Assembly (NCBI GenBank): GCA_963695475.1
Contig: CAVOHA010000007.1
Span: 426,549 to 458,548 of the forward strand
Source: Ilumatobacteraceae bacterium
GTDB lineage: Bacteria > Actinomycetota > Acidimicrobiia > Acidimicrobiales > Ilumatobacteraceae
Length of the DNA: 32,000 nucleotides
Reading direction: 5' to 3'
Both the position numbers and the translations under genes were made by a program. Of this stretch, positions 1,167 to 28,118 are shown in pieces; the first letter of the stretch is position 1; every line of letters begins with the position of its first letter. The notes under the pieces were generated by a model. That model saw only the letters and a list, made by a program, of their open reading frames with translations, did no database searches and was not told the origin of the DNA.

Positions 1167-1574
1167 TCAGACCAGGTAGGCGGTCAGGAGGTCGCGCATC
1201 GAGACGACCCCGAGCAGGCCGCCGTCGTCGGTCCCGACCAGCACGTGACGGAGGTAGTTCTCGAGCATCTCCTCGGCGACGTCATCGACCGTCGAGTCGG
1301 CGGTGGCCCACTTGAGATCTTCGGCTTCGATCGTCTCGACCGCGGTCGCGTCGAGGTCCAGCCCGAGTGCGACCGCGCCGACGATGTCACGCTCGGAGAC
1401 GACGCCGTAGATCTGTGTGTCGTCGGCGACCACCGCGAGGCTCACGTCGGTGGTGCGCAGCGCCTCGGCCACCTGTCGCAGCGAGGTGCCCGGTGCAATA
1501 CGCGTCGTCTCCTCGGAGACGAATCCGACGACGGCTCGTCGCCCGCCGATCGCTCCCACGTCGTCGTCGCCCAT
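1167..1574 (-). CDS. CBS domain-pair protein (about 135 aa)
   Basis: The C-terminal part of ORF 1167..1871 shows two CBS repeats (GVVSERDIVGAV and GVVSMRDLLTAYL). The ATG at 1574-1572 starts MGDDDV. The upstream part of the ORF is Arg/Pro-rich and looks non-coding. An alternative GTG start lies at 1601. Confidence 0.75.
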   Translation of the reverse strand: MGDDDVGAIGGRRAVVGFVSEETTRIAPGTSLRQVAEALRTTDVSLAVVADDTQIYGVVSERDIVGAVALGLDLDATAVETIEAEDLKWATADSTVDDVAEEMLENYLRHVLVGTDDGGLLGVVSMRDLLTAYLV

Positions 1575-1744
1575 CTCGAAAACCTCGTCGTCGCTGTTCA
1601 CGCCCCCAGACTTCCACTCAACGCGCGCAATGTCGAAGGGGAAAAGGTCCCGAGTCGCGTCGGGAGGGCCGTCGCGAAGTCGGGACCTGGGACCCTGGGG
1701 CGACGGCGATCGCGTGATCAGGATGACGAGCAGGAGGATCGGCG

Positions 1745-2656
1745 ATGTCGATGCGCGAACTCGTGATACTCGGCACGGCGGGTCTGGCGCCGACCGAGCA
1801 ACGCAACCACAACGGCTACCTGCTCCGATGGGACGGACAGGGCGTGCTCTTCGACCCGGGTGAAGGCACACAGCGACAATTCGCCAGAGCCGGCGTGTCT
1901 CCTGCCGCTGTCTCGCGGATCTGCATCAGCCACTTCCACGGCGACCACTGCCTCGGGCTCCCGGGCATGATCATGCGCCTCGCGATCGACGAAGGACACC
2001 TGCCCGTCCCGATCCACTACCCGGCCAGTGGTGAGGCGTTCTTCCAACGTCTCCGATTCGCGACTTCGGGTCAGGAGCTCGTTCCGGTCGACGCTCGCCC
2101 GATCGCCGAGCCCGGGATCATCCATCAGGACGAGGTGTTCACCCTCCGTTGCCGGCGGCTGGCGCACAGCATCGAGACGATGGGGTACCGACTCGAAGAA
2201 CCCGACGGGCGGCGGTTCGTGCCGGAACGGCTGGAGGCGCTCGGCATCGAGGGAGCCGCCAGGGGGCGACTCCGGTCCGATGGGTCGATCGTCCACCGCG
2301 GTCGTCGTATCGACCTGGAGGAGGTGACCGACCATCGACCCGGTCAAGCGGTCGCGATCATCATGGACACCGGGTGGTGCGACGCGGCGCTGGAACTCGC
2401 CGCCGGCGCAGACCTGGTCGTGTGCGAGTCGACGTTCCTGTCGAGCGACGAACAGCTCGCCGCCGAGTACGGGCACATGACGGCACGTCAGGCCGGGCGC
2501 CTGGCCCGGGAGGCGGGCGCACGTCGCCTGGTGCTCACGCACTTCTCGCGGCGCTACGACGACCCCGATGCGTTCGCCCGTGAGGCGCGGTGCGAGTTCG
2601 ACGACGTGGTCGTTGCCGACGACTTCGACCGCATCGCCGTGCCGGTCCGGCGTTGA
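1745..2656 (+). CDS. rnz: Ribonuclease Z (metallo-beta-lactamase fold tRNA 3' endonuclease)
   Basis: N-terminus LVILGTAGLAPTEQRNHNGYLL, an HxHxDH motif (SHFHGDHCLG) and C-terminal LVLTHFS. About 300 aa, as expected for short-form RNase Z. AGGAGGA Shine-Dalgarno 7 nt upstream of the ATG at 1745. Confidence 0.75.
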   Translation: MSMRELVILGTAGLAPTEQRNHNGYLLRWDGQGVLFDPGEGTQRQFARAGVSPAAVSRICISHFHGDHCLGLPGMIMRLAIDEGHLPVPIHYPASGEAFFQRLRFATSGQELVPVDARPIAEPGIIHQDEVFTLRCRRLAHSIETMGYRLEEPDGRRFVPERLEALGIEGAARGRLRSDGSIVHRGRRIDLEEVTDHRPGQAVAIIMDTGWCDAALELAAGADLVVCESTFLSSDEQLAAEYGHMTARQAGRLAREAGARRLVLTHFSRRYDDPDAFAREARCEFDDVVVADDFDRIAVPVRR

Positions 2657-4264: not shown

Positions 4265-5161
4265 ATGAGAAACATGGTGGTCGGTGTCGACGGGTCGGAG
4301 TCCGCGCTGGCGGCGCTCGACTGGGCCGCGGAAACGGTCGGGAGCGCCGGTCGGATCCACGCGGTCGTCGGTCTGAACCCCTGGACTCGCTACGTCGCCG
4401 ACGCCGTCGGTGGACACGAGGTGTCGTTTCGGGAGGTGCTCGAACGCGATCTCGTCGACCGCTGGACGGCCGAGACCGGATTCCGTGTGGGTGAGCTTGC
4501 AACCACCGTCAGCGACTCGACGGCTGCCAAGGCACTCGACGAGATCGCCACCGATGATCGCGCCGACGCGATCGTCGTCGGAGCACACACGTCGATCGTG
4601 GGCGCACCCGCCCGGGTCGGGCGCACGATCAACCACCTGATCCGCACCACCGACCATCCCGTCGTCGTCGTCCCCGGGCGACCACCGCTCGGTGTGGACG
4701 ACGGCGTCGTGGTGGTCGGCATCGGGCACGGCAACGCCACGCGTGCAGCGGTTCGGTGGGCGGCACATCTCGCACGCGAGCGCAGCCTCACCGTCGAGCT
4801 GTTGCACGCGACCGGCGACGCACCCGTGTTCCAGGCCGACGGAGTGCTCGAACTCGTTCGCTACGAGGTCGGGCGAGAGGATCCGGACGAATTCGAGCGC
4901 GGGTCGATCGAGCACTTCGCGGAGCTGATGCAGACGCTCGCCGGCCCCGAGCTCGATCTGGTCGTGTCGACCCCGCCGGGCCTTCCCGCACTGCGCCTCG
5001 ACGAGGCCAGTGAACGGTCGTCCCTGCTCGTGCTCGGTCGGCATCGCTCGGTGTGGGACCGGGGGCACCACACCGCACAGCCGCTCCGTCATGCGTTGAC
5101 GCACGCCCGCTGTCCCGTGGTGGTGATCGCCGATCACCCGGATTGGCTGACCGACGACTGA
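4265..5161 (+). CDS. Universal stress protein, tandem UspA domains
   Basis: N-terminus MVVGVDGSESALAALDWAA. The first domain ends in DAIVVGAHTS...HPVVVVP. The second domain runs VVVGIGHGNATRAAVRWAA ... LLVLGRHRS...CPVVVI. GGGAGGAG Shine-Dalgarno upstream. Confidence 0.8.
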   Translation: MRNMVVGVDGSESALAALDWAAETVGSAGRIHAVVGLNPWTRYVADAVGGHEVSFREVLERDLVDRWTAETGFRVGELATTVSDSTAAKALDEIATDDRADAIVVGAHTSIVGAPARVGRTINHLIRTTDHPVVVVPGRPPLGVDDGVVVVGIGHGNATRAAVRWAAHLARERSLTVELLHATGDAPVFQADGVLELVRYEVGREDPDEFERGSIEHFAELMQTLAGPELDLVVSTPPGLPALRLDEASERSSLLVLGRHRSVWDRGHHTAQPLRHALTHARCPVVVIADHPDWLTDD

Positions 5162-6597
5162 GCGACGCGCGGAGTCGCGCGCTCACCGAGCCGGATCACG
5201 GGGATGTCCCAGCGGCGGGCGAGTTCGACCAGGACGTCGTCGTGGTCGCCGTAGACCACGCCGAGATGGTGCTCGACACCCGCACCGAAGATCGTGGCCG
5301 CCACGTCGCGGACGGGCCGATCCCAGTGGATCGTGCCGCACGTCCCGCGGTACGCGCGCGGCCGATCGAGCATCTCGCCGCCGGCGATCACGAGACCGAG
5401 TCGCCCCGAACACTGCGAAATGCGAGCGACGGTCACTCGACCGGGCTTGAGCGCGAATTCGTTGACCAGCGCCACTCGTCGATTCGGGTGCACCGTGCCG
5501 CGCACCGAGTCATCGGGGTGCGCCAGTCGCGACGACGCCACGCCGCAGTGCCACAGCACCGACGTGTCGTCGGACTCGTCGACGTCGACGAGATCCGCGA
5601 TGAACGGATCGGCCCCGGCCACGAGCTGCAGCACGAGTGCCGTGATCGAGCCGAGGACGTCGGCTTCGCAGACACCCGGCACACGATCCTCGGTCAGCAT
5701 GGCGTGCGGCGTGCAGGCGGCGCCGCCGAACCGGTCCATGCACTCGGGCCAGCAGCGCGTCGCGACTGCGGCCAGCCCGCGACCGTCGACGAAGTGGCGC
5801 ATCCCGCAGTACAGACGGGCGCTCGGCTCGAGATCGTCTCGGGTCAGTCCGGCGTCGAGCGACAGCGTGGACGAGACGCGCCCGAGCACGTGGTCGACGT
5901 CGATGCGTTCGGCGTCGGTCGCCCGATCGAACAGGTCGTCGAGCATCAGCCGGTCGACCTGCACCCCGAACATCCACTCGATGAGGTGGTCGTTCCCCTC
6001 ACACGGTTCGAAACCCGTCGGTGGCTCGCCGATGATCCCCACCCGGCTGCGATGCAGTCGCTCGATCACGCGGTCGGCCGCCCGGGCGACGTGCGGATCG
6101 AACACGGCGGGACGCGCCGCGATCGTGGCCGCCCGCACGCTCGGTGATGCGCAGGCGTCGGCGATCGCCTGCGCGACGCGCTCGCCGCTGTCGGGTTGTG
6201 CCGGGTCGACGTGGACGAACGCGCATCGGTGGCGTCGCCGACGCAGCGAGTAGGCCGCGAGGTTCGCGCCACACAGCGAGTTCAACCGCAGGCGTTCGCC
6301 GTGCCGGGCCTCGGGAAACGACCAGACGACGATCGGTACGTCCGAGGCGTCGGCGATCGAGATCACCGTCGAGGCATCGGTGAAGGTCGCTTGGAGGACG
6401 ATCACGGCGTCGACTCGCTGATCGACCGCTGACCCGACGGCCGTGGCCATCGAGACGGCATCGGTGCAGACATCGCCCTCGCCGACCATCGTGACGCCGA
6501 TGCCGGCCAACACCTGTCGGGCAGCCGACGCCAGCACGGTGCCGAGCGGTACGTCGAAGGTGGGGCGACCGAGGGTCAACACCGCTGCGGTCGTCAT
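5134..6597 (-). CDS. L-fucose / L-arabinose isomerase-like family protein
   Basis: From MTTAAVLTLGRPTFDV (ATG 6597-6595). It has an N-terminal Rossmann-like segment, LNSLCGANL, WHCGVAS and a C-terminal HHLGVVYGDH, as in FucI/AraA-like sugar isomerases. The upstream 112 codons of the ORF look non-coding. An alternative ATG lies at 6615. The 3' end overlaps the convergent USP gene by 28 nt. Confidence 0.55.
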   Translation of the reverse strand: MTTAAVLTLGRPTFDVPLGTVLASAARQVLAGIGVTMVGEGDVCTDAVSMATAVGSAVDQRVDAVIVLQATFTDASTVISIADASDVPIVVWSFPEARHGERLRLNSLCGANLAAYSLRRRRHRCAFVHVDPAQPDSGERVAQAIADACASPSVRAATIAARPAVFDPHVARAADRVIERLHRSRVGIIGEPPTGFEPCEGNDHLIEWMFGVQVDRLMLDDLFDRATDAERIDVDHVLGRVSSTLSLDAGLTRDDLEPSARLYCGMRHFVDGRGLAAVATRCWPECMDRFGGAACTPHAMLTEDRVPGVCEADVLGSITALVLQLVAGADPFIADLVDVDESDDTSVLWHCGVASSRLAHPDDSVRGTVHPNRRVALVNEFALKPGRVTVARISQCSGRLGLVIAGGEMLDRPRAYRGTCGTIHWDRPVRDVAATIFGAGVEHHLGVVYGDHDDVLVELARRWDIPVIRLGERATPRVAQSSVSQSG

Positions 6598-6795
6598 CGC
6601 GCCGCCATCCAGCATCGAACGTCGTCCACATCTCCACGATGGGCGCATGCGGCCTGCGTCGACAGTGCCGAAAGCCCCACCGGAGTGCATGTGACCGAGG
6701 ACCCTGGGCGAGCACGCGGTGGCGGTGAACCATGGATGTTCTCGACGAGCGAGACGCCGTCTTGCTGCCGACACGACTGGTGAAAGGACTGCATC

Positions 6796-7008
6796 ATGAA
6801 GGCGCACACGGGTGACACACTCGTCATTTCGGGCCACGAGGTCGGCCGCCCCAAGCGAGTCGGCAGGATCGAGGAGGTCCGTGGCGACGACGGTGGGCCT
6901 CCCTACCGCGTGCGGTGGCGCGAGGACGACCACGTCACGCTGCTGTTCCCCGGCCCCGACTGCACGATCGAACCGATGGGTTCCGACGACGAGAAGGGAG
7001 CGGAGTGA
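6796..7008 (+). CDS. DUF1918 domain protein (70 aa)
   Basis: MKAHTGDTLVISGHEVGRPKRVGRIEEVRGDDGGPPYRVRWREDDHVTLLFPGPD matches the characteristic DUF1918 pattern (GD.L...G......R.G.I.EVRG.DG.PPY.VRW). GAAAGGA Shine-Dalgarno upstream. Confidence 0.7.
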   Translation: MKAHTGDTLVISGHEVGRPKRVGRIEEVRGDDGGPPYRVRWREDDHVTLLFPGPDCTIEPMGSDDEKGAE

Positions 7009-7466
7009 TGAAGGTCAGTGACTTCACCTGGCGCGACCCGGTGACGATCTCAGTGTCCGACACGATCCAGGCCGCGGCGCAGTTGCTCGCCGACGCCGGT
7101 GTCGGTTCGTTGGTCGTGGTGGACGGCGATCGCCCGGTGGGCGTCGTCACCGATCGGGACCTGGTGGTCCGGGCGATGGCGCGGGGCCTCGGGCCCGACG
7201 GCCGGGTCGACGGCGTCATGTCGATGGGCGTCGTCGCACTGGATGCCGACGACGACGTCGAGGAGCTGTACGCCGTGTTCGGTCGTCATGCGATCCGGCG
7301 GGTTCCGGTCGTCGACCGCGACCGAGTGGTCGGCGTGATCAGCCTCGACGACGCGCTCGTCTCGACCGCGAGCCAGCTGGCGGTGCTGTCCGGCGTGCTC
7401 TCCACCCAGATCGACTACCCGCACGTCCGGGACGAAGCCGAGCCCCCGGCGGTGATCCCCTCCTGA
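7008..7466 (+). CDS. CBS domain-pair protein (152 aa)
   Basis: The ATG at 7008 overlaps the DUF1918 TGA (TGATG). Two CBS repeats are present (GVVTDRDLVVRAM and GVISLDDALV). Confidence 0.8.
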   Translation: MKVSDFTWRDPVTISVSDTIQAAAQLLADAGVGSLVVVDGDRPVGVVTDRDLVVRAMARGLGPDGRVDGVMSMGVVALDADDDVEELYAVFGRHAIRRVPVVDRDRVVGVISLDDALVSTASQLAVLSGVLSTQIDYPHVRDEAEPPAVIPS

Positions 7467-7481
7467 CCGCGCGGTCCTTGG

Positions 7482-7506
7482 CCTCTGGCGCTGCACGGCG
7501 CAGAGG
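7482..7506 (+). terminator. GC-rich hairpin downstream of the CBS gene (possible terminator or attenuator before ppsA)
   Basis: CCTCTGGCG (7482-7490), loop CTGCACGG, then CGCAGAGG (7499-7506). This gives an 8-bp stem with one bulged G and no U-tract. Confidence 0.25.
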
Positions 7507-7544
7507 TCGACGATGGGAGTTGGGCCTCACGAAAGGATCCGGTC

Positions 7545-9866
7545 ATGGCGACCGCCGACATTCAGACAGTTCCTCGTTCCGACTCGCCGAGTGCCGCCGA
7601 GCCCTCGACGATTGCGCTCTCCGAGGTCGGATCGTCCGATGTCCTCCTCGTGGGAGGCAAGGGCGCCAACCTGGGAGAGATGCTCGCGAGCGGCTTTCCC
7701 GTTCCCGACGGCTTCGTCGTGACCGCGGCCGCGTACCGACGGGTGGTCGACGAGTCGGGGATCCGACAGCGCCTCGCCGACATCACCGCAGCCGCGGCGA
7801 CGGCGGATGCCGGTGAGCTGACCGAACTGGCGCGCACGGCCCGCGACCTGCTGGGCGAGGTGTCGCTGCCCGATGACCTCATCGCCGAAGTGACGCGTAT
7901 GTACGCAGCCCATTGCGCCGGCGCGCTGGTCGCCGTGCGATCGTCCGCAACGGCCGAGGACACCGCGGAGACCTCCTTCGCGGGGATGAACGAGTCGTTC
8001 ACCAACGTCACCGCCGTCGACCTCCTCGATCGGCTGATCGACTGCTGGATCTCGCTGTTCGGTGAGCGTGTCGTGTCCTATCGAGCCGAACGCGGGCTGG
8101 CCGACGAGCCGGCGATCGCCGTGGTCGTCCAGCAGATGGTGAGTTCGGACCGCTCGGGCGTCATGTTCACCGCTGATCCGGCCCGCCGTGACCAGGTGAT
8201 GATCGAGGGTGCCTTCGGGCTGGGCGAGATCGTCGTGTCCGGCGCCGTCGAACCCGACACCTACCGCGTCGATCGGGAGTCGGTCGGCGTCCGTGAGATC
8301 CGCATCGGGCACAAGGCGGCGCGGATCGTGAGCGGTCCCGACGGCGATCGTCACGAGGTCGTCGAGGGGAGCGAAGCCTGGAGCCGGGTGCTGTCCGACG
8401 AGGAGATCCGGGCCGTCGCCTCGATCGGCCTCGACATCGAGCGGCACTACGGTGTCCCCCAGGACATCGAGTGGTCCTACGTCGGCGATCGTTTGTACAT
8501 CGTGCAGTCGCGGCCGATCACCACGCTCGACATGGAGGCCGACGTCGACGACGAGCCGCTGCTTCGCGGCCTGGGGGTCGGTACCCGATCCGGTGTCGGT
8601 GCGGTGCGGATCCTCACGTCCCCGGCCGACGGCCACCTGCTGGCCGACGGTGACGTGTTGGTGGCCGAGATGACATCGCCCGACTGGGTGCCGACCATGC
8701 GCCGTGCTGCGGCCCTCATCACCGATGCCGGGGGCAGCACGTGCCATGCGGCGATCGTCAGCCGCGAGCTGGGCCTCCCCGCTGTCGTCGGCACACGCTC
8801 GGCCACCGCCGACCTGCGCGACGGCGATGTGGTCACGGTCGACGCCCGCCGGGGCATGGTGTTCGCCGGTGGACAGCATGTCGCTGTCCCCACCGTGGTC
8901 GAGCGCAGCGCGCAGACCGTGACGACGGGTGCCGAGCCCCTCGCCACGCGGTTGTACGTGAACCTGGCGATCGCCGACCGGGCCGAGGAGATCGCGGCGC
9001 TCGATGTCGACGGCGTGGGCCTGCTGCGCGGCGAGTTCATGGTGACCGAAGCGCTTGCCGGCCGTCATCCACGTGCGCTGATCGCGAGCGGTGGACAGGG
9101 CGAGTTCGTCGACCGCATGTCGTCGCAGCTCGGTCGCATCGCGTCGGCGTTCGCGCCGCGGCCGGTCGTGTACCGGACGATGGACTTCCGGTCCAACGAG
9201 TTCCGGGGGCTCGAGGGCGGTGAGCAGTACGAACCGCTCGAACAGAACCCGATGATCGGCTACCGCGGGTGCTATCGCTACCTCCACGACACCGAGACCT
9301 TCGCGCTCGAACTCGAGACGCTCGCTCGGGTCCGCGAGGCGTCGCCCAACCTGCACGTGATGATCCCGTTCGTCCGCACGAAGTGGGAGCTCGAAGCGTG
9401 TCTCGAAGCGATGGCGCAGAGCCGACTCGGTCGCCAAACCGGTCTGCGGACCTGGGTCATGGCCGAGGTGCCGTCGGTCATCCCACGGATCGCGGAGTAC
9501 GCGGCGCTCGGGATCGACGGCGTGTCGATCGGGTCCAACGACCTCACGCAACTGATGCTCGGCGTCGATCGTGACTCCGAGGTGCTGGCCGAGCTGTTCG
9601 ACGCTCGCGACACCGCGGTGCTGTGGGCGATCGAGCAGATCATCTCGGCGTGCCATCGTGCCGGGATCACGTCGTCGCTGTGCGGCTTGGCGCCGTCGTC
9701 CGATCCGGAGTTCGCGGAACTCCTGGTGCGGATGGGGATCACGTCGATTTCGGTCGACGCCGACGCGGTCGGGCCGGCCCGACGAGTCCTCGCGTCCGCT
9801 GAACGGCGAATCCTGCTCGAGCACGCGAGATCCCGGCCGATCACCGGCGACGGGAGCAGTGGGTGA
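7545..9866 (+). CDS. ppsA: Phosphoenolpyruvate synthase (pyruvate, water dikinase)
   Basis: N-terminal ATP-grasp region ([23 protein letters not shown]). Phosphohistidine swivel motif [22 protein letters not shown]-terminal PEP/pyruvate TIM barrel (IGSNDLTQL, catalytic-Cys loop SSLCGLAPS). 773 aa. Confidence 0.9.
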
Positions 9867-12664
9867 TGACCACCGAGGTCTGGCAGGTGGCGCGTGGCGA
9901 ACTCGGGCTCGCATCGGACGCGAACGACGTGAACATCGCGGACCTGGCCGTGTCGCGCCACGTGCGCGCCGGCCGCGGGGAGCAGACCGCCCTGCGGTGG
10001 TTCTCGCGCGACGACCTCGACACCGAGCGCCCGGTCGACATCACGTACGCGATGCTCGAACACCGCATCAACCGATTCGCCGGTGGGCTGCACCGCCACG
10101 GCTTCGACCCCGGGTCCGGTGTGGCAACGCTCGCCGGGCGCATTCCGGAGCTGTACGTCGCGGCGCTCGGCACGCTGCGCGCCCAGTGCGTGTACTCGCC
10201 GTTGTTCAGCGCGTTCGGCCCGGAGCCGATCGCGCAGCGGCTCGCGATCGGCAAGATCCGCGTCCTGGTCACGACGCCGGTGCAGTACCGACGCAAGGTG
10301 ACGAAGATCCTCGACCGCCTCCCCAGCCTCGAGCTCGTGTTGATCATCGGCGCCGACGAGGGCTCGTTGCCCGATCCCCCCGACACCCGAACGACCGTGA
10401 TGTCGTTCGGTCGCTTCGTCGGCGAGGGCCACGATGTGTACGCCGCCGCCGCCACTGCCCCCGACACGCCGTCGCTCCTGCACTTCACGAGCGGCACGAC
10501 GGGGGCGCCGAAGGGAGCGGTCCACGTGCACGAAGCGGCGGTTGCGCACTACGCCACGGCGCGGTCGGTGCTCGACCTGCACAACGGTGACGTGTACTGG
10601 TGCACCGCCGACCCCGGATGGGTGACCGGTACCTCGTACGGCATCGTCGCCCCGCTGCTGCACGGCGTCACGTCGATCATCGACGAAGCCGACTTCGATG
10701 CGGCGCGGTGGTATCGGATCCTGCGGGACCAGGCCGTCAACGTGTTCTACACCGCACCGACCGCGATCAGGATGCTCGAACGCGTCGGCGACGACGCGCA
10801 ACCCGGCGACTTCCCGGCGTTGCGGCTGGTGGCGAGCGTCGGTGAGCCACTCGACGCGGAGTCGGTGCTCTGGGCGCAGCAGGTGTTCCGGGTGCCCGTG
10901 CTCGACACGTGGTGGCAGACCGAGACGGGAGCGATCATGATCGCCAACCGCAAGGATGACGAGGTCCGGCCCGGGTCGATGGGCCGTCCGGTCGACGGGA
11001 TCACGGCGACGCTGCTCGAACGAGATGCGCAGGGCGAGTTGATCCTCGGTCCGGAGGGGGCGGCGCGCGAGGTGGTCGAGCCGGGAGCGACCGGCGAGAT
11101 CGCCGTGCGCGCCGGGTGGCCGTCGATGTTCCGCGGCTACCTCGACCGTGACGAGAAGTACCGGTCCTGCTTCGTCGAGGCGGGTGATGGTGCCGACGGG
11201 GATTGGTACCGATCGGGCGACCTCGCCCGACGTGACGAGGACGGCTACTTCTGGTTCGTCGGCCGCGGTGACGACGTGATCAAGACCGCCGGACACCTGA
11301 TCGGGCCGTTCGAGGTCGAGGCGGTGCTGGACGAGCACCCCGCAGTGGTCGAATCCGGGGTGATCGGCAAACCCGACCCGACGGCGGGAGCGGTGATCAA
11401 GGCGTTCGTCGTCCTCCACCGCGGTCACGAACCGAGCGCGGAGTTGCACACCGATCTCATGGCGCACTGTCGGCGTCGTCTCGGCGCGGCGGTGTCGCCG
11501 CGCGAGATCGAGTTCGCCGACTCGCTCCCGCACACCCGCAGCGGCAAGATCATGCGGCGGGTCCTGCGGGCCCGCGAGCTGGGCGAAGACGAAGGCGACA
11601 CGTCGACACTCGAGACCGTCCCGTCCACGACGGGGGCCCGAACGATGACGCGCTTTCGACTCGACGGTGTCACCGCAGACGAAGCCCGCGGATTGCTCGG
11701 TGACATGATCCGAGTCCGGGTGTTCGAAGAACGGTGCGCCGAGTTGTACGCCGAGTCGAAGATCCGGGGGTTCTTGCATCTCTACATCGGCGAGGAGGCG
11801 GTGGCGGCCGGCGTGATCGGTGCGCTCGATCCGGCGGACAACGTCCTCGCCACGTACCGCGAGCACGCGCACGCCCTGCTGCGTGGTGTCCCCGCCGAAT
11901 CGATCATGTCCGAGATGTTCGGCAGGGCGACCGGGTGCTCGGGCGGGCGGGGTGGCTCGATGCACCTGTTCGACGAGTCGACCCGCTTCTACGGCGGCAA
12001 TGCGATCGTCGGCGGGCACCTCCCACTCGCCGTCGGCCTGGCGTTGGCCGATCAGATGCTGCACCGTCGAGCCGCCACCGTGTGCTTCTTCGGCGAGGGT
12101 GCGATGGCCGAGGGGGAATTCCACGAGGCGATCAACCTCGCCGCGCTGTGGAACCTCCCGGTCCTGTTCTGCTGCGAGAACAATCGTTACGCGATGGGCA
12201 CATCGCTCGAATCCAGTGAGTCGCAGGTCGACCTCGCGCTCAAGGCGGCGGCCTACGCGATTCCGGCCTGGGTGGTCGACGGGATGGATCCGTTGGAGGT
12301 CCGTCGCGCGGCGCGCCGCGCGCTGGCGACGATCGAGGCGGGCGGAGGCCCGGTGTTCATCGAGTTCCAGACGTATCGGTTCCGGGCGCACTCGATGTTC
12401 GACCCCGATCTGTACCGGGACCCCGCCGAGATCGAGTACTGGAAGCAACGGGACCCGATCGACGTCCTCGGCCGGTGGCTCGCCGCCGAGGAGCTGGTCA
12501 CGACCGCCGAGGTCGACGCACTGTGGGAACGGGCACGATCCGAGACCGATCAGGCGGTGGTCGCGGCCGACGCTGCGCCACTCGAACCCGTCGAGGGGCT
12601 GCTCGAACACGTCACCGCGGCTCGTGCCGGCCGACACGGAGAGGAGCGGAACGATGTCCACTGA
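9866..12664 (+). CDS. In-frame fusion: AcsA-type AMP-forming acetyl/acyl-CoA synthetase (N-terminal, about 9866-11614) joined to the TPP-dependent 2-oxoacid (pyruvate/acetoin-type) dehydrogenase E1 alpha subunit (C-terminal, 11645-12664)
   Basis: Synthetase motifs: [64 protein letters not shown] 10-aa linker [10 protein letters not shown] follows with no in-frame stop. E1alpha motifs then appear: [54 protein letters not shown]. The start ATG at 9866 (or GTG at 9863) overlaps the ppsA TGA. Confidence 0.8.
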
Positions 12665-13679
12665 CACGGCCTCCGACGTCGTCGAGACAGGGCCGGTTCT
12701 GGAAACGACGTACCGCGAGGCGATGCGGCTGGCGATCCGTGAGGCACTGGAGACCGACGACCGTGTGATCGTGCTCGGTGAGGACGTCGCCGACTACGGC
12801 GGCACGTATGCGGTGACCAAGGGCCTCCACGAGGAATTCGGACGCGACCGCGTGCGCAACACACCGCTGTCCGAGTCCGGCTTCGTCGGTGCCGGCATCG
12901 GCGCAGCGCTCGGCGGGCTCCGGCCGATCGTCGAGATCATGACCGTCAACTTCAGCCTGTTGGCGCTCGACCAGATCGTCAACACGGCGGCCACGCTGCT
13001 CCACATGTCGGGCGGGCAGTTCAACGTCCCGGTCGTGATTCGGATGACCACCGGCGCGGGTCGGCAGTTGGCGGCGCAGCATTCTCACAGCCTCGAGGGC
13101 TGGTACGCACACGTTCCCGGGTTGAAGGTCGTCGCCCCGGCGACCGTTGCAGACGCACGGTGGATGTTGCCGACGGCGCTGGCCGACCCGAACCCCGTGA
13201 TCATCTTCGAGCACAACGCGCTGTACGGCATGAAGGGAACGCTCGATCCGGACGGATCGCCCGTCGACCTCGAGACGGCCGCGATTCGTCGCCGGGGCGA
13301 CGATGTCACCCTGGTGGCGAGCGGCGGCATGGTCCCCAAGGCGCTCGCCGCCGCGGCGACGCTCGCCGAACGCGGCGTGTCGGCCGAGGTGGTCGATCTC
13401 CGATCGCTGCGCCCACTCGATGTCGCGACGCTCGAGACGTCGGTGACCAGGACACACCATGCGGTCGTCGTCGACGAGGGCTGGCGGACCGGTGGGTTGA
13501 GCGCGGAACTGTCCGCCGTGATCACCGAGGCGTGCTTCTGGACGCTCGACGCTCCGGTGCGCCGGGTGGCGGCCGCCGAAGTACCGATCCCGTACGCCAA
13601 GCACTTGGAGGACCACGCGATTCCCCAAGCGGACGACATCGTGGTCGCGGCCGTCGAACTCCTCGAGGAGGGCGCGTGA
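12654..13679 (+). CDS. 2-oxoacid dehydrogenase E1 component beta subunit
   Basis: [65 protein letters not shown] is the canonical PdhB/AcoB N-terminus, and a transketolase C-terminal-like region follows. GGAGAGGAG Shine-Dalgarno. The start overlaps the upstream gene by 11 nt. Confidence 0.9.
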
Positions 13680-14854
13680 GCGACGCAGGGGTCACGACCG
13701 CCGCGGCGGCGACCGCGACGTCCGAAACCGAGTCGTCGATCGAGTACGCGATGCCGTCCCTCGGCGCGGACATGGAGGAGGGTGCGGTCGTCGAGTGGCT
13801 GGTCGCCGTCGGCGATCACGTCGAGCGAGGACAGGTGGTCGCACGCGTCGAGACCGAGAAGTCCGACATCGACATCGAGATCTGGCACGAGGGGATCGTC
13901 GACGAGATCCTCGTGCCGACGCACCGCACGGTCCCCGTCGGGACCCCCCTCCTGCGGTTCCACGCCGCCGGAGCAGCCGTGGACCGGCCCGCGACGCTCG
14001 ACCCGGTCTCCTCCGGCGTCATCCGCGCCACACCGTTCGCACGCCGGCTCGCTGCGGATCGCGGCGTCGAACTGCGTGACATCGCCGGCACCGGGCCCGG
14101 TGGCGCGGTGCGTGCGCGCGACGTGCCCGATGTGTCCGTGCCCGTGGCGAGTCCGGCGCCGACGCCCGCCGTGCCGCGGGAGCACCGCGGCGAGCGGATG
14201 CGAACGGTCATCGCGCAGCGGATGGACCGGTCGAATCGTGACATCCCGCAGTATCGGTTGGAACGGACGGTCGACCTCGATGCGCTGCTCCGTCACCTCG
14301 CCGCCATCAACGAGGACCGCCCGGTGGCGGAGCGGATCGTGCCGGCCGCAGCATTCGTTCGAGCTGTCGCCCTGGCCGCCGGACGTCATCGAGCGCTCAA
14401 CGGGACGTGGATCGACGACGGCTTCCAGCCCGGACCCGCCGTGAACGTGTCGATCGCGATCTCGCTGCGCACCGGTGGACTCGTCACGCCGACGATCCCC
14501 GATGCCGACCGCCTGTCGCTCGACGACACGATGGCACGGATCCGCGAGTACACGACGGCGGCGAGGTCCGGGACGCTGCGATCCGAGTGGACGCGTGCCG
14601 ACAGCACGATCACCGTGACCAACCTCGGCGACCGCGGCGCCGACCTCGTGCACGGGTTGATCTCACCACCGGAGGTGGCGCTCGTGGGGTTCGGACGGAT
14701 CCTCGAACGTCCGTGGGTGGTCGACGGCGCGGTCGTCCCGAGACCCGTCGTCCACGTCACCCTCGCTGCCGACCACCGCGCAACCGACGGCGCGGTCGGC
14801 AGCCGCTTCTTGTCCACTCTCACCCGCATCCTGGAGGAGCCCGATCAGACATGA
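13676..14854 (+). CDS. Dihydrolipoamide acyltransferase (E2) with one lipoyl domain
   Basis: The GTG start overlaps the E1beta stop (GTGA). Lipoyl domain [18 protein letters not shown]...[11 protein letters not shown], with a lipoyl-lysine context. Peripheral subunit-binding domain [33 protein letters not shown]. Catalytic domain with DHRATDG. Confidence 0.85.
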
Positions 14855-15111
14855 GCAACGACACCGCGACCATCCGACTGCGGCGCGCGATCGACGATGC
14901 GATCTCGGCCGTCGCGCCCGACGTGACCGACGAACTCGCCGACCTCGATCCGGATGTCGACCTGTTCGAGGAGTTCGGACTCGACTCGATGGACCGCCTC
15001 AACATCATGACAGCGCTCGCGCAGTCGACCGGCGTCGAGATCTCCGACGACCGGTATCCCTGGCTGACGTCGATCAACCGCCTGCTGGCCGAGTTGTCGT
15101 CGGCCCGGTGA
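14851..15111 (+). CDS. Acyl carrier protein-like (phosphopantetheine-binding) protein, 86 aa
   Basis: The ATG overlaps the E2 TGA (ATGA). An acidic four-helix-sized protein with the carrier-protein serine motif LFEEFGLDSMDRLNIMTAL. Confidence 0.7.
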   Translation: MSNDTATIRLRRAIDDAISAVAPDVTDELADLDPDVDLFEEFGLDSMDRLNIMTALAQSTGVEISDDRYPWLTSINRLLAELSSAR

Positions 15112-15937
15112 TCACGAAGGCGACACCCGGGGCGGGTGCGGGAGGCGGAAGACGAGCACGGGGCACGGCGCGTGGCGAACGAAACCGGATGTGACGCTGC
15201 CCATCGTCAGCCGGGACAGACCGCTGCGCCCGTGGGACGACGCAACGATCAGCGACGCGTGGTGTCGCTGCGCGTAGGCGCACACCGCAGCGACCGGGTG
15301 CCCATCGTGCAACTCGTCGAACTCGACCGAGTGGTCGGACGCCTCGCGTAGCTCGCTGGCCAGTCGGGCGAGGTAGACGGCGTCGGTCGCCTCCCCACCG
15401 TCACCCGGTGTGGACGAGCCCGTCGCGTGGACGATCCACGGTGTGGTCCCCAGCTCGACCGCCCAGGCCACACCCAGTGGCACGGCCGCCTCTGACGCCT
15501 CCGAACCGTCGACCGTGATCACGAGGGGGCCGCAGAAGTCGTCGGGTTCGGCCTGCGGGCCCACCAGGACGATCGGGCCGAACGAGTGCCGAAGGATCTG
15601 ATCGGCGACGCTTCCGACCACTGCGGCGGAGCGCCCCTTTCCGTGCGACGCCATCACGACGAGAACGTCGGGCACCGACTCGACCAGCGCGCTGATCGTT
15701 TCGCCGACGGACCTCGCGCTCGAGCTGGACGTTCGTCGTCACCGGGACGTCCATCGGCGCGCGTCGATCGATGTCCACCGCCAACTGCTCGCGAGCGAGG
15801 TCTGCATCGACGGGATCCGACTCGACCTGCACCACCTCGACCTTGGCGTCGAACCGCCGCGCCAACGCGATGGCGACGTCGAAGCCGCGCCACGAAGCAG
15901 CCGATCCATCGATCGGCACGATGATGTGCGTGGCCAT
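15112..15937 (-). pseudogene. Tandem universal stress protein interrupted by a frameshift near 15709-15738
   Basis: After a GGAGGGGAG Shine-Dalgarno, ATG 15937-15935 starts MATHIIVPIDGSAASWRGFDVAIALARR...VTTNVQLERE. That frame then turns into Arg-rich nonsense. The USP sequence continues in the adjacent frame as SVGETISALVESVPDVLVVMASHGKGRS...LVGP, followed by a complete second USP domain that ends CPVLVF. This could be a real frameshift or a sequencing indel. Confidence 0.6.
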
Positions 15938-16142: not shown

Positions 16143-16391
16143 ATGTGTTTCACCGAGCCCGGATGTGTGCAGTCGATCGACGGTTCCATGGTTCGCGTCG
16201 ACACCGTGCACGGAGTGTGCGACGCATCGACACGGATGGTCGAGGCCGCCGGCACGACCGTCACGCCCGGCGACTGGGTGCTGATGTCGCTCGGCCTGGT
16301 CGTCGACGTCGTCGACGAAGCCGAAGGACGTGCGCTGCTCGAGCAGATGCGCGAACTGCACATGGGGGTCGAGCCATGGCCGATTCCGTGA
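16143..16391 (+). CDS. hypC: HypC/HybG/HupF-family [NiFe]-hydrogenase maturation chaperone
   Basis: The N-terminus begins with the obligatory Met-Cys: MCFTEPGCVQSIDGSMVRVD. It is followed by GDWVLMSLGLVVDVVDEAEG, matching the HypC pattern MC.(G/A).PG....(I/V)D ... GD(W/Y)VL.H.G.A. 82 aa. Confidence 0.75.
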   Translation: MCFTEPGCVQSIDGSMVRVDTVHGVCDASTRMVEAAGTTVTPGDWVLMSLGLVVDVVDEAEGRALLEQMRELHMGVEPWPIP

Positions 16392-17308
16392 GTGGGCTCC
16401 GCCTGGCGCTCGTCGCCGCGGGTGTATCGGGCGTGGCGGTGTACGTGAACGGGGAGGCGGTCGGACGGTTCTCCTCGGCAACGGTCTACACCACCGGAAA
16501 GAACCTCGTCGCGGGGCTGCTGCTGGTGACACTCGCGATCGCCCTGCCGCGCGCCGGGGGATCGCCTGCGCCCGCCGCCGGTCGGATGTGGTCCACCCGG
16601 GAGCGGCTCGGTCTCGCCGCCGTGGCGTTGATCGGCGGTGCGGTGCCGTTCGTCCTGTTCTTCGAGGGGCTCGCCCGTGCGACGTCGAGCGATGCCGCCT
16701 TCCTGCACAAGACCCTCGTCGTCTGGGTGGCCGTCTTTGCCGTCGCGCTGCTCGGTGAGCGACTCACGGCCCTCCATGTCGGCGCCATCGCACTGCTGAT
16801 CGCCGGGCAGGTCGCTCTCGCCGGAGGGATCAGCTCGCTGCACGTCGGGGCCGGCGAGGCGATGATCCTGGCGGCGACGATCTGCTGGGCAGCCGAGTTG
16901 ATCCTGGTGAAGCGTCTCGTCGAACGGCTGCCATCGACGACGGTCGGTGCGGCTCGGATCGGGGGCGGTGCGGTGCTGCTCGTCGTGTGGCTGGCGTTGT
17001 CCGGACGCCTCGACGAACTCGTGTCGCTGTCCATGTCGCAGTGGGCGTGGCTCCTCGTCACCGGAGGCATCCTCTCGATGTTCGTGACGGTGTGGTTCGC
17101 GGCGGTCGCCCGGGCGCCGGTCATCGACGTTGCGGCGTTGCTCGTGCCGGCTGCGGTGATCACCGGGCTCATTCGGCTCGCGGCCGAAGGAAACACTGCG
17201 CCGATCCAGGTGGTCGGCTGGTCGCTGATGCTGCTCGGGGTGGCTGCGGTGATCGCAGGGCGCCGCGCCGATCAGCGCGATCACGGTGTGATCGGGGCGG
17301 TGACGTGA
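16376..17308 (+). CDS. DMT-superfamily (EamA-like) permease, about 10 TM segments
   Basis: Two EamA-like halves of hydrophobic helices are separated by ERLTALH. The gene overlaps the hypC 3' end. An alternative GTG start at 16388 would form a GTGA overlap with the hypC stop. Confidence 0.7.
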   Translation: MADSVSGLRLALVAAGVSGVAVYVNGEAVGRFSSATVYTTGKNLVAGLLLVTLAIALPRAGGSPAPAAGRMWSTRERLGLAAVALIGGAVPFVLFFEGLARATSSDAAFLHKTLVVWVAVFAVALLGERLTALHVGAIALLIAGQVALAGGISSLHVGAGEAMILAATICWAAELILVKRLVERLPSTTVGAARIGGGAVLLVVWLALSGRLDELVSLSMSQWAWLLVTGGILSMFVTVWFAAVARAPVIDVAALLVPAAVITGLIRLAAEGNTAPIQVVGWSLMLLGVAAVIAGRRADQRDHGVIGAVT

Positions 17309-18027
17309 ACGACCCGATCGGCGTGGCTCGCTTCATGCGGTACGCCGCCCCGCCCAATCAGCGCGGATTCTGCGGGCCGTCGGGGTTCGGATCGCTCGAC
17401 CCGACGATGCCGGAGGCCCACGCGGAGGCCCGCCACCGGGCGAAGGAGTTCCTGGGTGCGTATCCGTATCTCGAGCTGTTGGCGGGCGCGGCCGGACTCG
17501 AGGACCCGCTCGCCGACGTCGCGGTCGAGGCGTACTGGCTCGGCAATCGGATGGCCGCCCGCGTCTCGACCGGCGATTTCGGGCGGTCGCTCGCCGATCG
17601 GTTCCGTGTGCGGAGCGGTCGCAACTGGGCGCCCGTGGAGTCGGCCGTGCCGGGTGCTGTCTGCAATCACGCGTTCCATGTGCTCGTCGCCTCCCCGTGG
17701 GTCGGGCTGATGCGCAGTGGCGTGGTCGACGAACCGCTCGCGATCGTCGACGAGTGTCGAGTCAGCTGGGGCAAGGTCGTGTCGATCGACGACGCGCCGC
17801 GTCACTCGGTCGAGCGCACGCCACTCGAGTGGCACAACGGCCGTCTCCTTCCCGGCCGCCTCGAGACGGTCGAGGTGTTCAGCGAGCTCCCGCTGTCGCT
17901 CGGCGATCACGTCGCCCTCCACTGGGGGTGTGTGTGCGACGTCCTGTCTCAGCGTCAACTCGCGTGGCTGCGCTCCGTGACGGCGTCGCAACTCGCCCTG
18001 TCCCACTCGATCGGACGGCCCTGCTGA
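17305..18027 (+). CDS. Conserved hypothetical protein with an N-terminal YAAPPN.RGFCGP domain and a C-terminal HypC-like segment
   Basis: The GTG at 17305 overlaps the permease stop (GTGA), and the gene's own stop overlaps the hyhB ATG (TGATG). The C-terminal CRVSWGKVVSIDD...GDHVALHWGCVCDVLSQRQ parallels the HypC motifs. I recall similar actinobacterial DUF proteins but cannot verify the family here. Confidence 0.55.
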   Translation: MNDPIGVARFMRYAAPPNQRGFCGPSGFGSLDPTMPEAHAEARHRAKEFLGAYPYLELLAGAAGLEDPLADVAVEAYWLGNRMAARVSTGDFGRSLADRFRVRSGRNWAPVESAVPGAVCNHAFHVLVASPWVGLMRSGVVDEPLAIVDECRVSWGKVVSIDDAPRHSVERTPLEWHNGRLLPGRLETVEVFSELPLSLGDHVALHWGCVCDVLSQRQLAWLRSVTASQLALSHSIGRPC

Positions 18028-19208
18028 TGAGCCCGCGTGCCGCTACACCACCCATCGTGACCGGTCCGGATGGGCTGACCGGCATCGTCGACGAACTCGA
18101 TCGCGCCGGCTTCGACGTCTGGGGGCCGGCCGTGCGCGACGGCGTCATCGTCACGCGTCGCATCGACGGGAGTGACGAGTTGCCGCTCGGATACCGCGTG
18201 GAGCAGTCGCCGGGTTCGTCTCGCCTGCTCCAGACCGGCGACCGCTCACGCTTCGGGTGGGCGGTCGGCCCGCAACCGTGGAAGCCGCTGCTCCATCCGC
18301 CATCGGTCACCACGATGCACATCACCCAGCGGTCCGCCGCGCAACCCGTGACCGTGAGCCTGCGTGGCCGGCCGCCACGACCGCTGGCGCTGTTCGGGAT
18401 GCGGCCCTGCGATCTCGCCGCACTCGAGACATTGGATCGCGTCCTCATCGATGCGCCGCCGGTCGCCGAGCCCACCTACGACGGTCGTCGCACCGACGCG
18501 TTCCTCGTGGTGGTCAACTGCGCCGTTCCCGCGTCGACGTGCGCCTGTACGTCGTTCGGGACGGGACCCCACGTCGGCGAGCCCGACGGCGATCATGCCG
18601 GCCACGATCTGGAGATCACCGAACTCCTTCCGTCCGATCCCGCCGAGGATCCCGAGTACGTCGTCGCCGCGATGAGCGAGCGAGGCGCTTCGCTGATGGC
18701 CCGTGTCGCCGAGCGCGTCGCGGTCGACCAACTCCGAGATCGACACGTCGCGGCAATCGCCGATCAACGGGCGGCCGCGGCGACGGCGATCTCGCGCCGT
18801 GCGCCCACCGATCGCGTGCGCGGCGCCTTGGCAGATGCCCACGATCTGCACCGCTGGAGCGAGCTCGAAGGGCAGTGTGTCGCGTGCGGCAACTGCACCG
18901 CGGTGTGTCCCACGTGCTTCTGCACGACCGTCAACGACATCGGCGACCTGACGGGAACGCAGGTCGAGCGACACCGTGACTGGGAGTCGTGCTTCTCGCT
19001 CGAGTTCAGCCGTCTGGGTGACCACTCCGTTCGCTCGTCGGTTGCGTCTCGCTACCGCCAGTGGATGACACACAAGCTCGGAACGTGGCACGACCAGTTC
19101 GGCGAGTCGGGCTGCGTCGGGTGCGGTCGGTGCACGACGTGGTGTCCGGTCGGTATCGACTTCTTCGCTGTTGCCGATGGCATCGTCGATGCAGTGGAGG
19201 CGCGGTGA
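18027..19208 (+). CDS. hyhB: Group 3b [NiFe]-hydrogenase beta subunit (AsrA-like 4Fe-4S dicluster protein)
   Basis: Two ferredoxin-type cluster motifs are present, CVACGNCTAVCPTCFC and CVGCGRCTTWCPVG. The architecture and position upstream of the gamma, small and large subunits match sulfhydrogenase/Hyh operons. Confidence 0.8.
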   Translation: MSPRAATPPIVTGPDGLTGIVDELDRAGFDVWGPAVRDGVIVTRRIDGSDELPLGYRVEQSPGSSRLLQTGDRSRFGWAVGPQPWKPLLHPPSVTTMHITQRSAAQPVTVSLRGRPPRPLALFGMRPCDLAALETLDRVLIDAPPVAEPTYDGRRTDAFLVVVNCAVPASTCACTSFGTGPHVGEPDGDHAGHDLEITELLPSDPAEDPEYVVAAMSERGASLMARVAERVAVDQLRDRHVAAIADQRAAAATAISRRAPTDRVRGALADAHDLHRWSELEGQCVACGNCTAVCPTCFCTTVNDIGDLTGTQVERHRDWESCFSLEFSRLGDHSVRSSVASRYRQWMTHKLGTWHDQFGESGCVGCGRCTTWCPVGIDFFAVADGIVDAVEAR

Positions 19209-20056
19209 TGTCCGCTGCCGAGCTCGTCGACATGCCCGTTCCCCACCGCATCGTCGCGCGTCACGAGGAGACCGTCGACGTGGTGACCCTGCGCGTGCAG
19301 CCGGTCGCGACGCAGCTCCCGGACTTCCAGCCGGCTCAGTTCTCGATGATCGGGGTGGTGGGTGTCGGCGAGGTCCCGATCTCGATCAGTTCGACCTGCG
19401 ACGACCGGACGGCCCACGACTACACGCTGCGCCGCGCCGGCGCGGTCACCAACGCACTGTGGAATCGCCGAGTCGGTGACGTGGTGACCGTGCGCGGACC
19501 GTTCGGCCGACCCTGGGACCTGCAACGCGCCGACGGTCGTCACGCGGTGTTCATCGCCGGCGGCATCGGGATCGCGCCGCTGCGCGCCGCGATCGTCGAA
19601 CTTGCCACCCACCGGGCGGCCACCCCGAGCCGCCTCTCCGTCCTGGTCGGCGCAGCGACGCCGAGTGACCACCTCTACGAACCGTGGCTGGCCGACCTCG
19701 CGGCCGGCGGCGTCGAGGTGCTGCGGTCGGTGGATCGAACGGGTGACGTCGATGACTGGCCACATGCGATCGGATTCGTGACCGAGCTGATTCCCCCGGT
19801 CGTCGCGGAGTGGACCGGGAACGTTGCGGTCAGCGCCTACGTGTGCGGCCCGGACGCGATGATGTCTGCTGCCATCGACACCCTGCGTCGGTGCCGTGTT
19901 GCACCCGCCGATGTCGAGGTGACCCTCGAGCGCAACATGCAGTGTGCCAACGGTTGGTGTGGGCACTGCCAGCTGGGGCCACTGCTGGTGTGCCGAGACG
20001 GCCCGGTTGCAAGCGCAGTCGAACTCGGCGACCTGCTCGAACGGAGCGAGTTGTGA
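19208..20056 (+). CDS. hyhG: Group 3b [NiFe]-hydrogenase gamma subunit (FAD/NAD(P)-binding, 2Fe-2S; AsrB/PyrK-like)
   Basis: Ferredoxin-reductase-type fold ([19 protein letters not shown]). C-terminal cluster motif [22 protein letters not shown]. The ATG overlaps the hyhB stop (TGATG). Confidence 0.8.
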
Positions 20057-20832
20057 ACCGGCCCGTGACGCTCGGTCGCCCCGAGGCCGTTCCCACGCTC
20101 GCCGTCTGGAAGTTCGCGTCGTGCGACGGATGCCAGTTGTCGCTGCTCGACTGCGAGGACGAGCTGTTGGCGATCGGCAATTCGATCCGCATCGCGTCGT
20201 TTCCCGAGGCCTCGAGTGCGATCGTCGACGGCCCGTACGACCTCTCGCTCGTCGAAGGCTCGGTCACCACGCCGGACGATGTCGAACGGATCCGGGCGAT
20301 CCGTGCCGCGTCGACGACCCTGGTGACGATCGGTGCGTGCGCGACGGGAGGTGGGATCCAGGCGCTGCGCAACGGTGCCGACATCGAGGAGTATCTCTCG
20401 ATCGTGTACGCCCACCCCGCGTACATCTCGACGCTGGCGACCTCGACGCCGATCGCCGACCACGTGGACGTCGACTTCGAACTCCGCGGATGCCCGATCG
20501 ATCGGCGACAACTCGTCGAGGTCGTCGCGGCCTACCTGACCGGCCGTCCGCCACGCATCGCATCGACGAGCGTGTGTACCGAGTGCAAGGCTCGTCGAGT
20601 CGCGTGCGTCATGGTCGTCGACGGCGAACCGTGCCTGGGTCCGGTCACGCACGCCGGGTGCGGCGCGCTGTGCCCCTCGTTCCGCCGCGGCTGCTACGGG
20701 TGTTTCGGGCCGGCCGAGACCGCTGACACGGCAACCCTCGATCGTCAGCTCGAACGACTCGGACTCGACGAGCGCGACCGGGAACGCCTGTGGCGGGGGT
20801 TCAGCGGGTGGAAGCTCGGAGGCCCGCGATGA
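20053..20832 (+). CDS. hyhS: Group 3b [NiFe]-hydrogenase small (delta) subunit
   Basis: NuoB/hydrogenase-small-subunit pattern [23 protein letters not shown], plus a C-terminal Cys-rich region ([27 protein letters not shown]). The GTG start overlaps the hyhG stop (GTGA). Confidence 0.85.
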
Positions 20833-24091: not shown

Positions 24092-24178
24092 GGCTGCCTT
24101 TCGGTGGGATGAGTTCGTTCGGTGCTATGCATTGCGAACGGCTCGCCGAGATGCTCTCGCAACGCGAGCCACACGCTC

Positions 24179-25198: not shown

Positions 25199-25205
25199 CC
25201 TGACG

Positions 25206-26309: not shown

Positions 26310-26322
26310 GCCGAGGTCCCCG

Positions 26323-28057: not shown

Positions 28058-28118
28058 CCGCCCATCATCCCATCCCCACGGGGGCGGTCGTTCACTCGGA
28101 GGAGACGGTGGTGCGTGG

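Follow-up and report, generated by a model that had tools for sequence, protein, structure and literature searches.

The 32,000-nucleotide stretch of an Ilumatobacteraceae bacterium genome analysed here (contig CAVOHA010000007.1, positions 426,549 to 458,548 of the forward strand; hereafter the window) contains an open reading frame (ORF) in which an AMP-forming acetyl-coenzyme A (CoA) synthetase (Acs) runs without a stop codon into the E1alpha subunit of a pyruvate dehydrogenase (PDH)-type complex. The 932-residue product is best read as a frame merger of two coupled genes and not as an evolved fusion of this lineage, and a probability of about 0.82 is assigned to this reading, which takes in either origin of the single extra base responsible. 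That base would be either an error in the sequence or a mutation of very recent date, and the sequence alone gives nearly even odds for the two, with a slight lean toward an artefact of assembly.

The open frame extends from 9863 to 12664 on the forward strand, or 933 residues counted from a GTG, and translation from the ATG at 9866 gives 932 residues that read through to 12664 without a stop. The original prediction, made from the letters of the window, had described an uninterrupted synthetase-E1alpha frame of 933 residues, and the ORF listing, the translation, the Pfam domains (AMP-binding at residues 37-426, AMP-binding_C at 483-561, and E1_dh at 614-907) and the coding phase all bear it out, the last being single and unbroken over the junction in a frame plot of G+C at third codon positions. 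Both halves are regular members of their families, complete and with their catalytic motifs. The Acs half matches NF003313 over residues 6-583 with 740.4 bits (NCBIfam cutoff 729), carries the catalytic-lysine motif SGKIMRR, and has the acetyl-CoA synthetase 9g79 as its closest PDB entry. By family it is an AMP-forming acetate-CoA ligase, which could form an acetyl thioester, predicted to be acetyl-CoA, from acetate, with either CoA or the acyl carrier protein (ACP) encoded nearby as the acceptor. The E1alpha half scores 409.5 bits against the NCBIfam equivalog cutoff of 393.85 for TIGR03182, contains the G-E-G...NN motif for thiamine pyrophosphate (TPP), and is closest in the PDB to human PDH E1alpha (PDHA1; 1ni4). 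A chain covering both halves was not found in the PDB comparison. In the AlphaFold model, two confidently folded halves (mean predicted local distance difference test score, pLDDT, 83.6) are joined by a segment with pLDDT below 50 at residues 575-597 and no secondary structure at 573-603, which is consistent with a flexible tether; the model speaks to disorder at the junction alone and has no bearing on whether the fusion is real.

At the junction, 11641-11650 has the sequence aacgATGAcg. Its TGA (11646-11648) is out of frame with the synthetase, as had been pointed out, and no earlier stop occurs in the +1 frame from 11615 onward. Similar stop/start overlaps had been noted elsewhere in the operon and are found as ATGA between E2 and ACP (14851-14854) and as GTGA between E1beta and E2 (13676-13679). 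Because the E1alpha start overlaps the Acs stop in an ATGA, the frame of the E1alpha gene is offset from that of acs by precisely one base, and therefore one base added in the last ~30 nucleotides (nt) of acs merges the two frames. The present position of the TGA in the +1 frame of Acs is due to one such base, located in the G5C3 run GGGGGCCC just upstream of the ATGA (Table 1). DNA alignments give ACGGGGGCCCGAACGATGA in the window against GCGAGGA-GCGAACGATGA in the relatives or, over a longer junction segment, ...ACGACGGGGGCCCGAACGATGA against ...GCGAGGA-GCGAACGATGA. In a three-way alignment of 940 nt with 96% mean column identity, the extra base is the sole indel whose length does not divide by three. 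Removal of one C from the run restores an Acs ending in ...TTGAER-stop, like the ...ER-stop end at two related loci (L001 and L094). Adjacent G5+/C3+ runs occur at two sites in the 32 kb, the junction being one of them. The other adjacent G/C homopolymer composite (ggggccccc, 28401-28410) stands just upstream of a minus-strand PPK2 gene.

Comparison with relatives carries the main conclusion. In a homologue search covering 5.8 billion proteins, each of the 30 homologues that reach 71% identity to the Acs half is unfused (551-618 residues, AMP-binding domains only), and their C-termini stop a few residues past the conserved GDTSTLE, as in P0001 (93% identity), which ends in ...TVPSVARSER. The nearest named relatives belong to Ilumatobacteraceae/Acidimicrobiia. 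At the DNA level, three syntenic loci (L001, L002, and L003) have the gene order of the window, with Acs and E1alpha called as two genes that share 4 nt, and in each of L084-L090, which came from scanning metagenome contigs for the pattern, Acs stops at an ATGA. All distinct relative junction sequences from the window's clade (8/8) end Acs at an ATGA, with ...TVPSVARSER-stop in L001 and ...TVPSPARSER-stop in L094. The latter locus, which encodes P0286 and comes from an independent JGI sample, is 99% identical to the window over the aligned Acs C-terminal stretch and has a separate E1alpha gene next to it. Neither the fusion nor the window's E1beta had a match in exact-protein look-ups, and a junction-centred search of the same 5.8 billion proteins found only unfused (P0286, P0293, P0311, and P0314) or frameshift-noisy (P0271) relatives. 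Four marks of a maintained fusion were considered: a single ORF over both enzymes is present, the fusion is not shared by diverged close relatives, its internal start signals have not been lost, and the junction was not recovered from independent assemblies. A single-base indel in the ~30 nt after GDTSTLE had been entered in the original prediction as a caveat, and against the ATGA-coupled pair of every close relative it has become the principal result. The alignment of orthologues that it called for gives separate ATGA-coupled genes, which is the first half of a joint observation, coupled there with an absence of junction peptides, that it had named as counting against its fusion, and for this clade that half is what is found.

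In the Ilumatobacteraceae-like clade of the window, acs and E1alpha stand as two genes coupled in translation, the Acs TGA being embedded in the E1alpha start, and with the extra base within GGGGGCCC the Acs frame reads straight into E1alpha. The internal Shine-Dalgarno (SD) sequence, ATG, and ATGA are all intact in the window, so that the signals for two separate proteins are still in place. The GGGGG upstream of the internal ATG had been described as weak, an assessment that does not hold: its predicted anti-SD pairing energy is -8.6 kcal/mol with a 7-nt spacer, within the range of -7.5 to -9.5 kcal/mol of the unfused relatives. An old fusion with a degraded internal SD was rejected on this equality of pairing energy. 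Among the features of an ATGA-coupled pair, the boundary ATGA and the SD inside the upstream gene are present, and a TGA in frame with Acs is missing. If the base is real, Acs would hang by a disordered linker of ~30 residues from the E1alpha N-terminus and, as one chain, would be carried by E1alpha on the outside of the alpha2beta2/E2 assembly. Initiation at the internal SD and ATG could probably still supply free E1alpha in that case.

The merger is further supported by pseudo-fusions of the same gene pair that arise from indel noise in public assemblies. P0009 and P0010 come from Flye-style long-read contigs of the same ENA series as L001 and have lost GDxSTLE by frameshift. They were rejected as natural fusions and are probable long-read indel artefacts, on the grounds of this contig origin, of the lost GDxSTLE, and of the other split genes in L093, namely those for KdpA, E1beta, and E2. 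P0271, a frameshift-noisy pseudo-fusion, belongs to the same clade as the window. Out-of-frame stretches abound in about 20 representatives that span the junction, and an exhaustive search of representatives was abandoned as a count of independent fusions because such stretches are obvious in most of these junction-spanning sequences. Frameshifts are abundant in the long-read-derived L001, L010, L076, L092, L093, P0121-P0130, and P0271, where PpsA, E1beta, E2, and KdpA genes are split. Frameshift errors of this kind lead to spurious 'AMP-binding + E1_dh' architectures in protein databases, and the protein sets of public databases already hold many pseudo-fusions of the acs/E1alpha pair. In high-GC genomes with ATGA-overlapped genes, one indel can silently make a plausible 'multidomain enzyme'.

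Several observations weigh against the frame merger. The window is otherwise clean: each of its 18 genes syntenic with L002, a MEGAHIT-style (k141) contig used for comparison of frames, stays in one frame when aligned. This speaks against an assembly prone to errors throughout and keeps a real allele plausible. A generally noisy assembly of the window was rejected on these genes, and the frame plot of the window shows no unexplained phase switches. Besides the indel, the junction differs by 4-5 substitutions from the two nearest relatives and is not simply the relatives' sequence plus a homopolymer slip. Genuine fusions of the same pair exist elsewhere, which makes it likely that a fused product is tolerated. 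Lastly, the function put forward below for the surrounding gene set is a proposal drawn from gene content and neighbourhood.

Within the frame merger, the origin of the extra base divides the evidence. An indel of assembly or consensus, in which the organism has GGGGGCC or GGGGCCC, ends Acs in ...TTGAER-stop or ...TTGPER-stop at the ATGA, and makes two proteins like its relatives, is given an even chance. It would account for the location of the base in one of the two adjacent G5+/C3+ runs in 32 kb, for the return of the ...ER-stop ending common to L001 and L094 when one C is dropped, for the intact SD, ATG, and ATGA, and for the lack of an independent record of a fused allele or strain in the look-ups and junction-centred search; the repeated pseudo-fusion of the pair in public long-read assemblies, members of the window's clade included, points the same way. 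However, no further frameshift is seen among the 18 syntenic genes, and none of the other 39 homopolymers of at least five bases visibly breaks a gene. A real and very recent allele, produced by a slippage insertion in G5C3 and yielding a tolerated Acs::E1alpha that joins the E1/E2 complex and places Acs beside E2 and ACP, is a serious contender at a little under even odds. The clean quality of the rest of the window favours it, as do the additional junction substitutions, which look like genuine divergence, the maintained fusion in Chloroflexia (P0011, P0014, and L051), the clean singleton fusions (P0008, P0012/L091, and P0015), the predicted disorder of the linker, and an E1alpha-E1beta fusion in Vibrio albus showing that cassette neighbours fuse readily. 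Against such an allele, none of the 30 close relatives is fused, every separate-gene signal is kept, and it has been seen once only.

Two further explanations are far less probable. The original prediction had favoured a fusion evolved and selected for substrate or carrier channelling, and as a property of this lineage that reading is largely refuted and now very unlikely: all relatives at 71-93% identity are unfused, the internal start signals are undegraded, and the junction is accounted for by one base. The wider idea of a coupling between the two enzymes was not baseless, given that the gene pair is functionally linked across phyla, with adjacency in about 57 genomes, and that true fusions are found elsewhere, as in Chloroflexia. 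Also considered, and scarcely credible, is a programmed +1 ribosomal frameshift or other recoding event at the G/C run, by which Acs would normally still terminate at the ATGA even with the additional base. The G5C3 run and a CGA codon, both just upstream, are all that could speak for it, a recognised +1 shift site was not identified, and the relatives, all in frame with their TGA, need no recoding; nothing was found to support it.

A census that scanned one genome per species for this Acs subfamily immediately upstream of E1alpha found about 57 loci with acs-E1alpha adjacency in at least eight phyla. These include Proteobacteria (among them Vibrio albus, Microbulbifer, Ciceribacter, and Burkholderiales), Actinomycetota (Cellulomonas soli, Agromyces tardus, and Actinacidiphila), Chloroflexota, Nitrospira, Planctomycetota, Gemmatimonadota, and Campylobacterota. 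Almost every locus continues with E1beta and E2, and the five-gene order acs-E1alpha-E1beta-E2-ACP on one strand is found in the window and in most loci. Across L001-L076, 42 of the 46 informative loci have, downstream of E2, an ACP-like ORF in which the motif D-x-DS-[MFIL]-D is conserved. Together with an E2 that falls under the curated cutoffs, this conserved ACP hints that ACP, and not CoA alone, may be the acyl acceptor. A gene for phosphoenolpyruvate (PEP) synthase is often near the cassette, and a group 3b hydrogenase adjoins it in distant lineages (L002 and L091).

Among the ~57 genome loci, only L051 is cleanly fused. The L051 fusion lies at 5923-8580. It groups with P0011 and P0014 in Chloroflexia; the three sequences stem from three datasets and have 81-84% mutual identity and a common in-frame junction, STLET[AS]V[DE]K[DE]HG, without Met, and this conservation indicates that in the Chloroflexia clade the Acs::E1alpha fusion is genuine and maintained. 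P0008, P0012 (at L091), and P0015 are clean singleton fusions with unrelated linkers, and L091 has no in-frame ATG at the junction. In Vibrio albus (NZ_QFWT01000003.1, L047:7641-9656), E1alpha and E1beta are fused in a 671-residue ORF with E1_dh, Transket_pyr, and Transketolase_C domains. A Rep_trans replication-initiator gene upstream in L047 suggests that the Vibrio albus cassette is on a mobile element. A functional link between the Acs and E1alpha enzymes is credible, though the window's fusion is poor evidence for it. The original prediction knew of no characterised Acs-E1alpha fusion, and literature searches likewise found no description of such a fusion or of an acs-E1alpha-E1beta-E2-ACP cassette. 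The lasting value of the analysis lies in this five-gene cassette across at least eight phyla and in the genuine Chloroflexia fusion. As a fusion, the window's instance matters little, being one base from the ordinary two-gene layout, and it may not exist in the cell.

Table 1. Coordinates of the junction, the cassette, and associated genes in the window.
Feature	Position	Strand	Description
CBS protein	6915-7466	+	Precedes PEP synthase
PEP synthase (pyruvate, water dikinase)	7545-9866	+	First gene of the operon; Pfam PPDK_N, PEP-utilizers, PEP-utilizers_C
Acs half	9866-11614	+	Complete short-type (AcsA-like) AMP-forming acetate-CoA ligase, up to conserved C-terminal GDTSTLE; Pfam AMP-binding, AMP-binding_C
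Ten-codon 'linker'	11615-11644	+	Probable normal variable Acs tail, last codons one base out of register
GGGGGCCC run	11632-11639		Site of the extra base relative to all close relatives
ATGA	11645-11648	+	E1alpha start codon overlapping the ancestral Acs stop; TGA now in +1 frame
E1alpha half	11645-12664	+	Complete PDH-type TPP-binding subunit; Pfam E1_dh
E1beta	12654-13679	+	11-nt overlap with the E1alpha 3' end; Pfam Transket_pyr, Transketolase_C; NF006667 390 bits (cutoff 321)
E2	13676-14854	+	Lipoyl, E3-binding, and acyltransferase domains; Pfam Biotin_lipoyl, E3_binding, 2-oxoacid_dh; DHRATDG motif
ACP-like carrier	14851-15111	+	86 residues; Pfam PP-binding; LDSMD serine motif
Group-3b-like NiFe hydrogenase	18048-22139	+	Four subunits; Pfam Fer4_22, NAD_binding_1/DHODB_Fe-S_bind, Oxidored_q6, NiFeSe_Hases

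The window has a G+C content of ~69%, and its operon opens with PEP synthase (Table 1), which scores 793 bits for NF005057 (cutoff 598) and 759 for TIGR01418 (cutoff 740) in NCBIfam. The E2 falls under every NCBIfam E2 cutoff. Downstream of the cassette, 16145-22139 holds a HypC-like gene, an EamA transporter, and DUF6390, then the 3b-type hydrogenase. The domain set of the latter, with Fe-S, NAD(P)-binding, small, and large subunits, fits group 3b, and the association of cassette and hydrogenase is found also in L002 and, divergently, in L091. Around the operon are universal stress proteins (USPs), more CBS proteins, DUF1918, and PPK2. PPK2, two CBS-domain proteins, and two USPs occupy 27200-28261 (-), 1167-1871 (-), 4265-5161 (+), 6915-7466 (+), and 15112-15675 (-). 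By analogy, this island rich in adenylate-related and stress proteins resembles DosR-type hypoxia islands. Beyond the hydrogenase, an acyltransferase, an LPG_synthase_TM protein, and a patatin-like phospholipase are encoded at 24122-27159 and could represent a link to lipid remodelling.

We infer from gene content that the cassette would oxidise pyruvate to an acetyl thioester of ACP and/or CoA, interconverted with acetate and ATP under oxygen limitation, the direction of Acs, the role of ACP, and the source of pyrophosphate (PPi) all forming part of this four-step model. PEP synthase would run toward pyruvate, converting PEP, AMP, and inorganic phosphate to pyruvate and ATP; E1 and E2 would then oxidise pyruvate to the acetyl thioester. 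The acetyl group would be handed to the dedicated ACP and/or to CoA, and Acs would interconvert the acetyl thioester with acetate and ATP. Reoxidation of NAD(P)H would fall to the 3b hydrogenase. Precedents exist for separate parts of the model. A hand-off from E1 and a lipoyl-E2 to ACP has been described for QncN/L/M and SclQ1-4 (PMC6335953). In Syntrophus aciditrophicus, an AMP-forming Acs runs in reverse and makes ATP from acetyl-CoA, AMP, and PPi (PMC4992975). In hypoxic M. smegmatis, PEP synthase and the hydrogenase Hyh are DosR-induced, and reoxidation of NAD(P)H by the hydrogenase has been proposed (bioRxiv 10.1101/2023.09.11.557286).

A bolder version holds that the extra base is real, that the organism makes a 100-kDa Acs::E1alpha protein, and that the cassette is an undescribed carrier-protein-dependent pyruvate-to-acetate module. 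E2 would hand acetyl to ACP, and the complex-tethered Acs would run in reverse to form ATP from AMP, alongside PEP synthase (AMP to ATP) and a 3b hydrogenase shedding reducing equivalents as H2 in hypoxia. This combination is unlikely. If it were true, the recurrent fusions (Acs::E1alpha in Chloroflexia and E1alpha::E1beta in Vibrio albus) would amount to Rosetta-stone evidence for a metabolon, and a hypoxic ATP-regenerating module would bear on the persistence of aerobes without oxygen.

The components of the window compare with several known systems. The N-terminal 583 residues of the 932-residue product are a full-length match to AcsA (NF003313/PRK04319; PDB 9g79), with the same adenylation fold, C-terminal domain, and SGKIMRR motif. 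In contrast to AcsA, the window's Acs runs in frame into E1alpha, and its subfamily always lies upstream of a PDH-like E1/E2/ACP set and has the conserved GDxSTLE tail. The C-terminal 339 residues are above the cutoff for the E1alpha of heterotetrameric PDH (TIGR03182; 1ni4) and are adjoined by E1beta and a lipoyl-E2; however, the cassette differs from heterotetrameric PDH in that it is without an E3 gene, its E2 falls under the curated cutoffs, and a dedicated ACP follows E2. The Chloroflexia fusions and the singletons P0008, P0012, and P0015 share with the window the two domains, their identical order, and the same cassette. They have no internal Met or SD, whereas the window keeps its ATGA and SD, and the short Chloroflexia linker is conserved over 16-19% protein divergence, whereas the window's junction is unique to one sequence.

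More distant likenesses concern the logic of the pathway. QncN/QncL/QncM follow the same scheme of E1, lipoyl-acyltransferase, and small ACP (PMC6335953). Their E1s are transketolase-like, act on ketose phosphates, and feed a nonribosomal peptide synthetase, whereas the window's E1 is PDH-type and accompanied by an acetate-CoA ligase, with transfer to ACP a proposal in this case. The reverse-running Acs of Syntrophus aciditrophicus is a precedent for the formation of ATP, and its link to the window's Acs is one that we infer. The window, with its USP and CBS proteins, PEP synthase, 3b hydrogenase, and an acetate-linked ATP enzyme, recalls described islands for hypoxia or dormancy that carry fermentative modules, both the DosR regulon of M. 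smegmatis (PEP synthase MSMEG_3934, PfkB, and the Hyh 3b hydrogenase) and the lxa locus of B. cenocepacia (USPs and AckA-Pta). In contrast to the window, neither has been reported with an acs-E1-E2-ACP cassette, and the lxa locus uses AckA-Pta.

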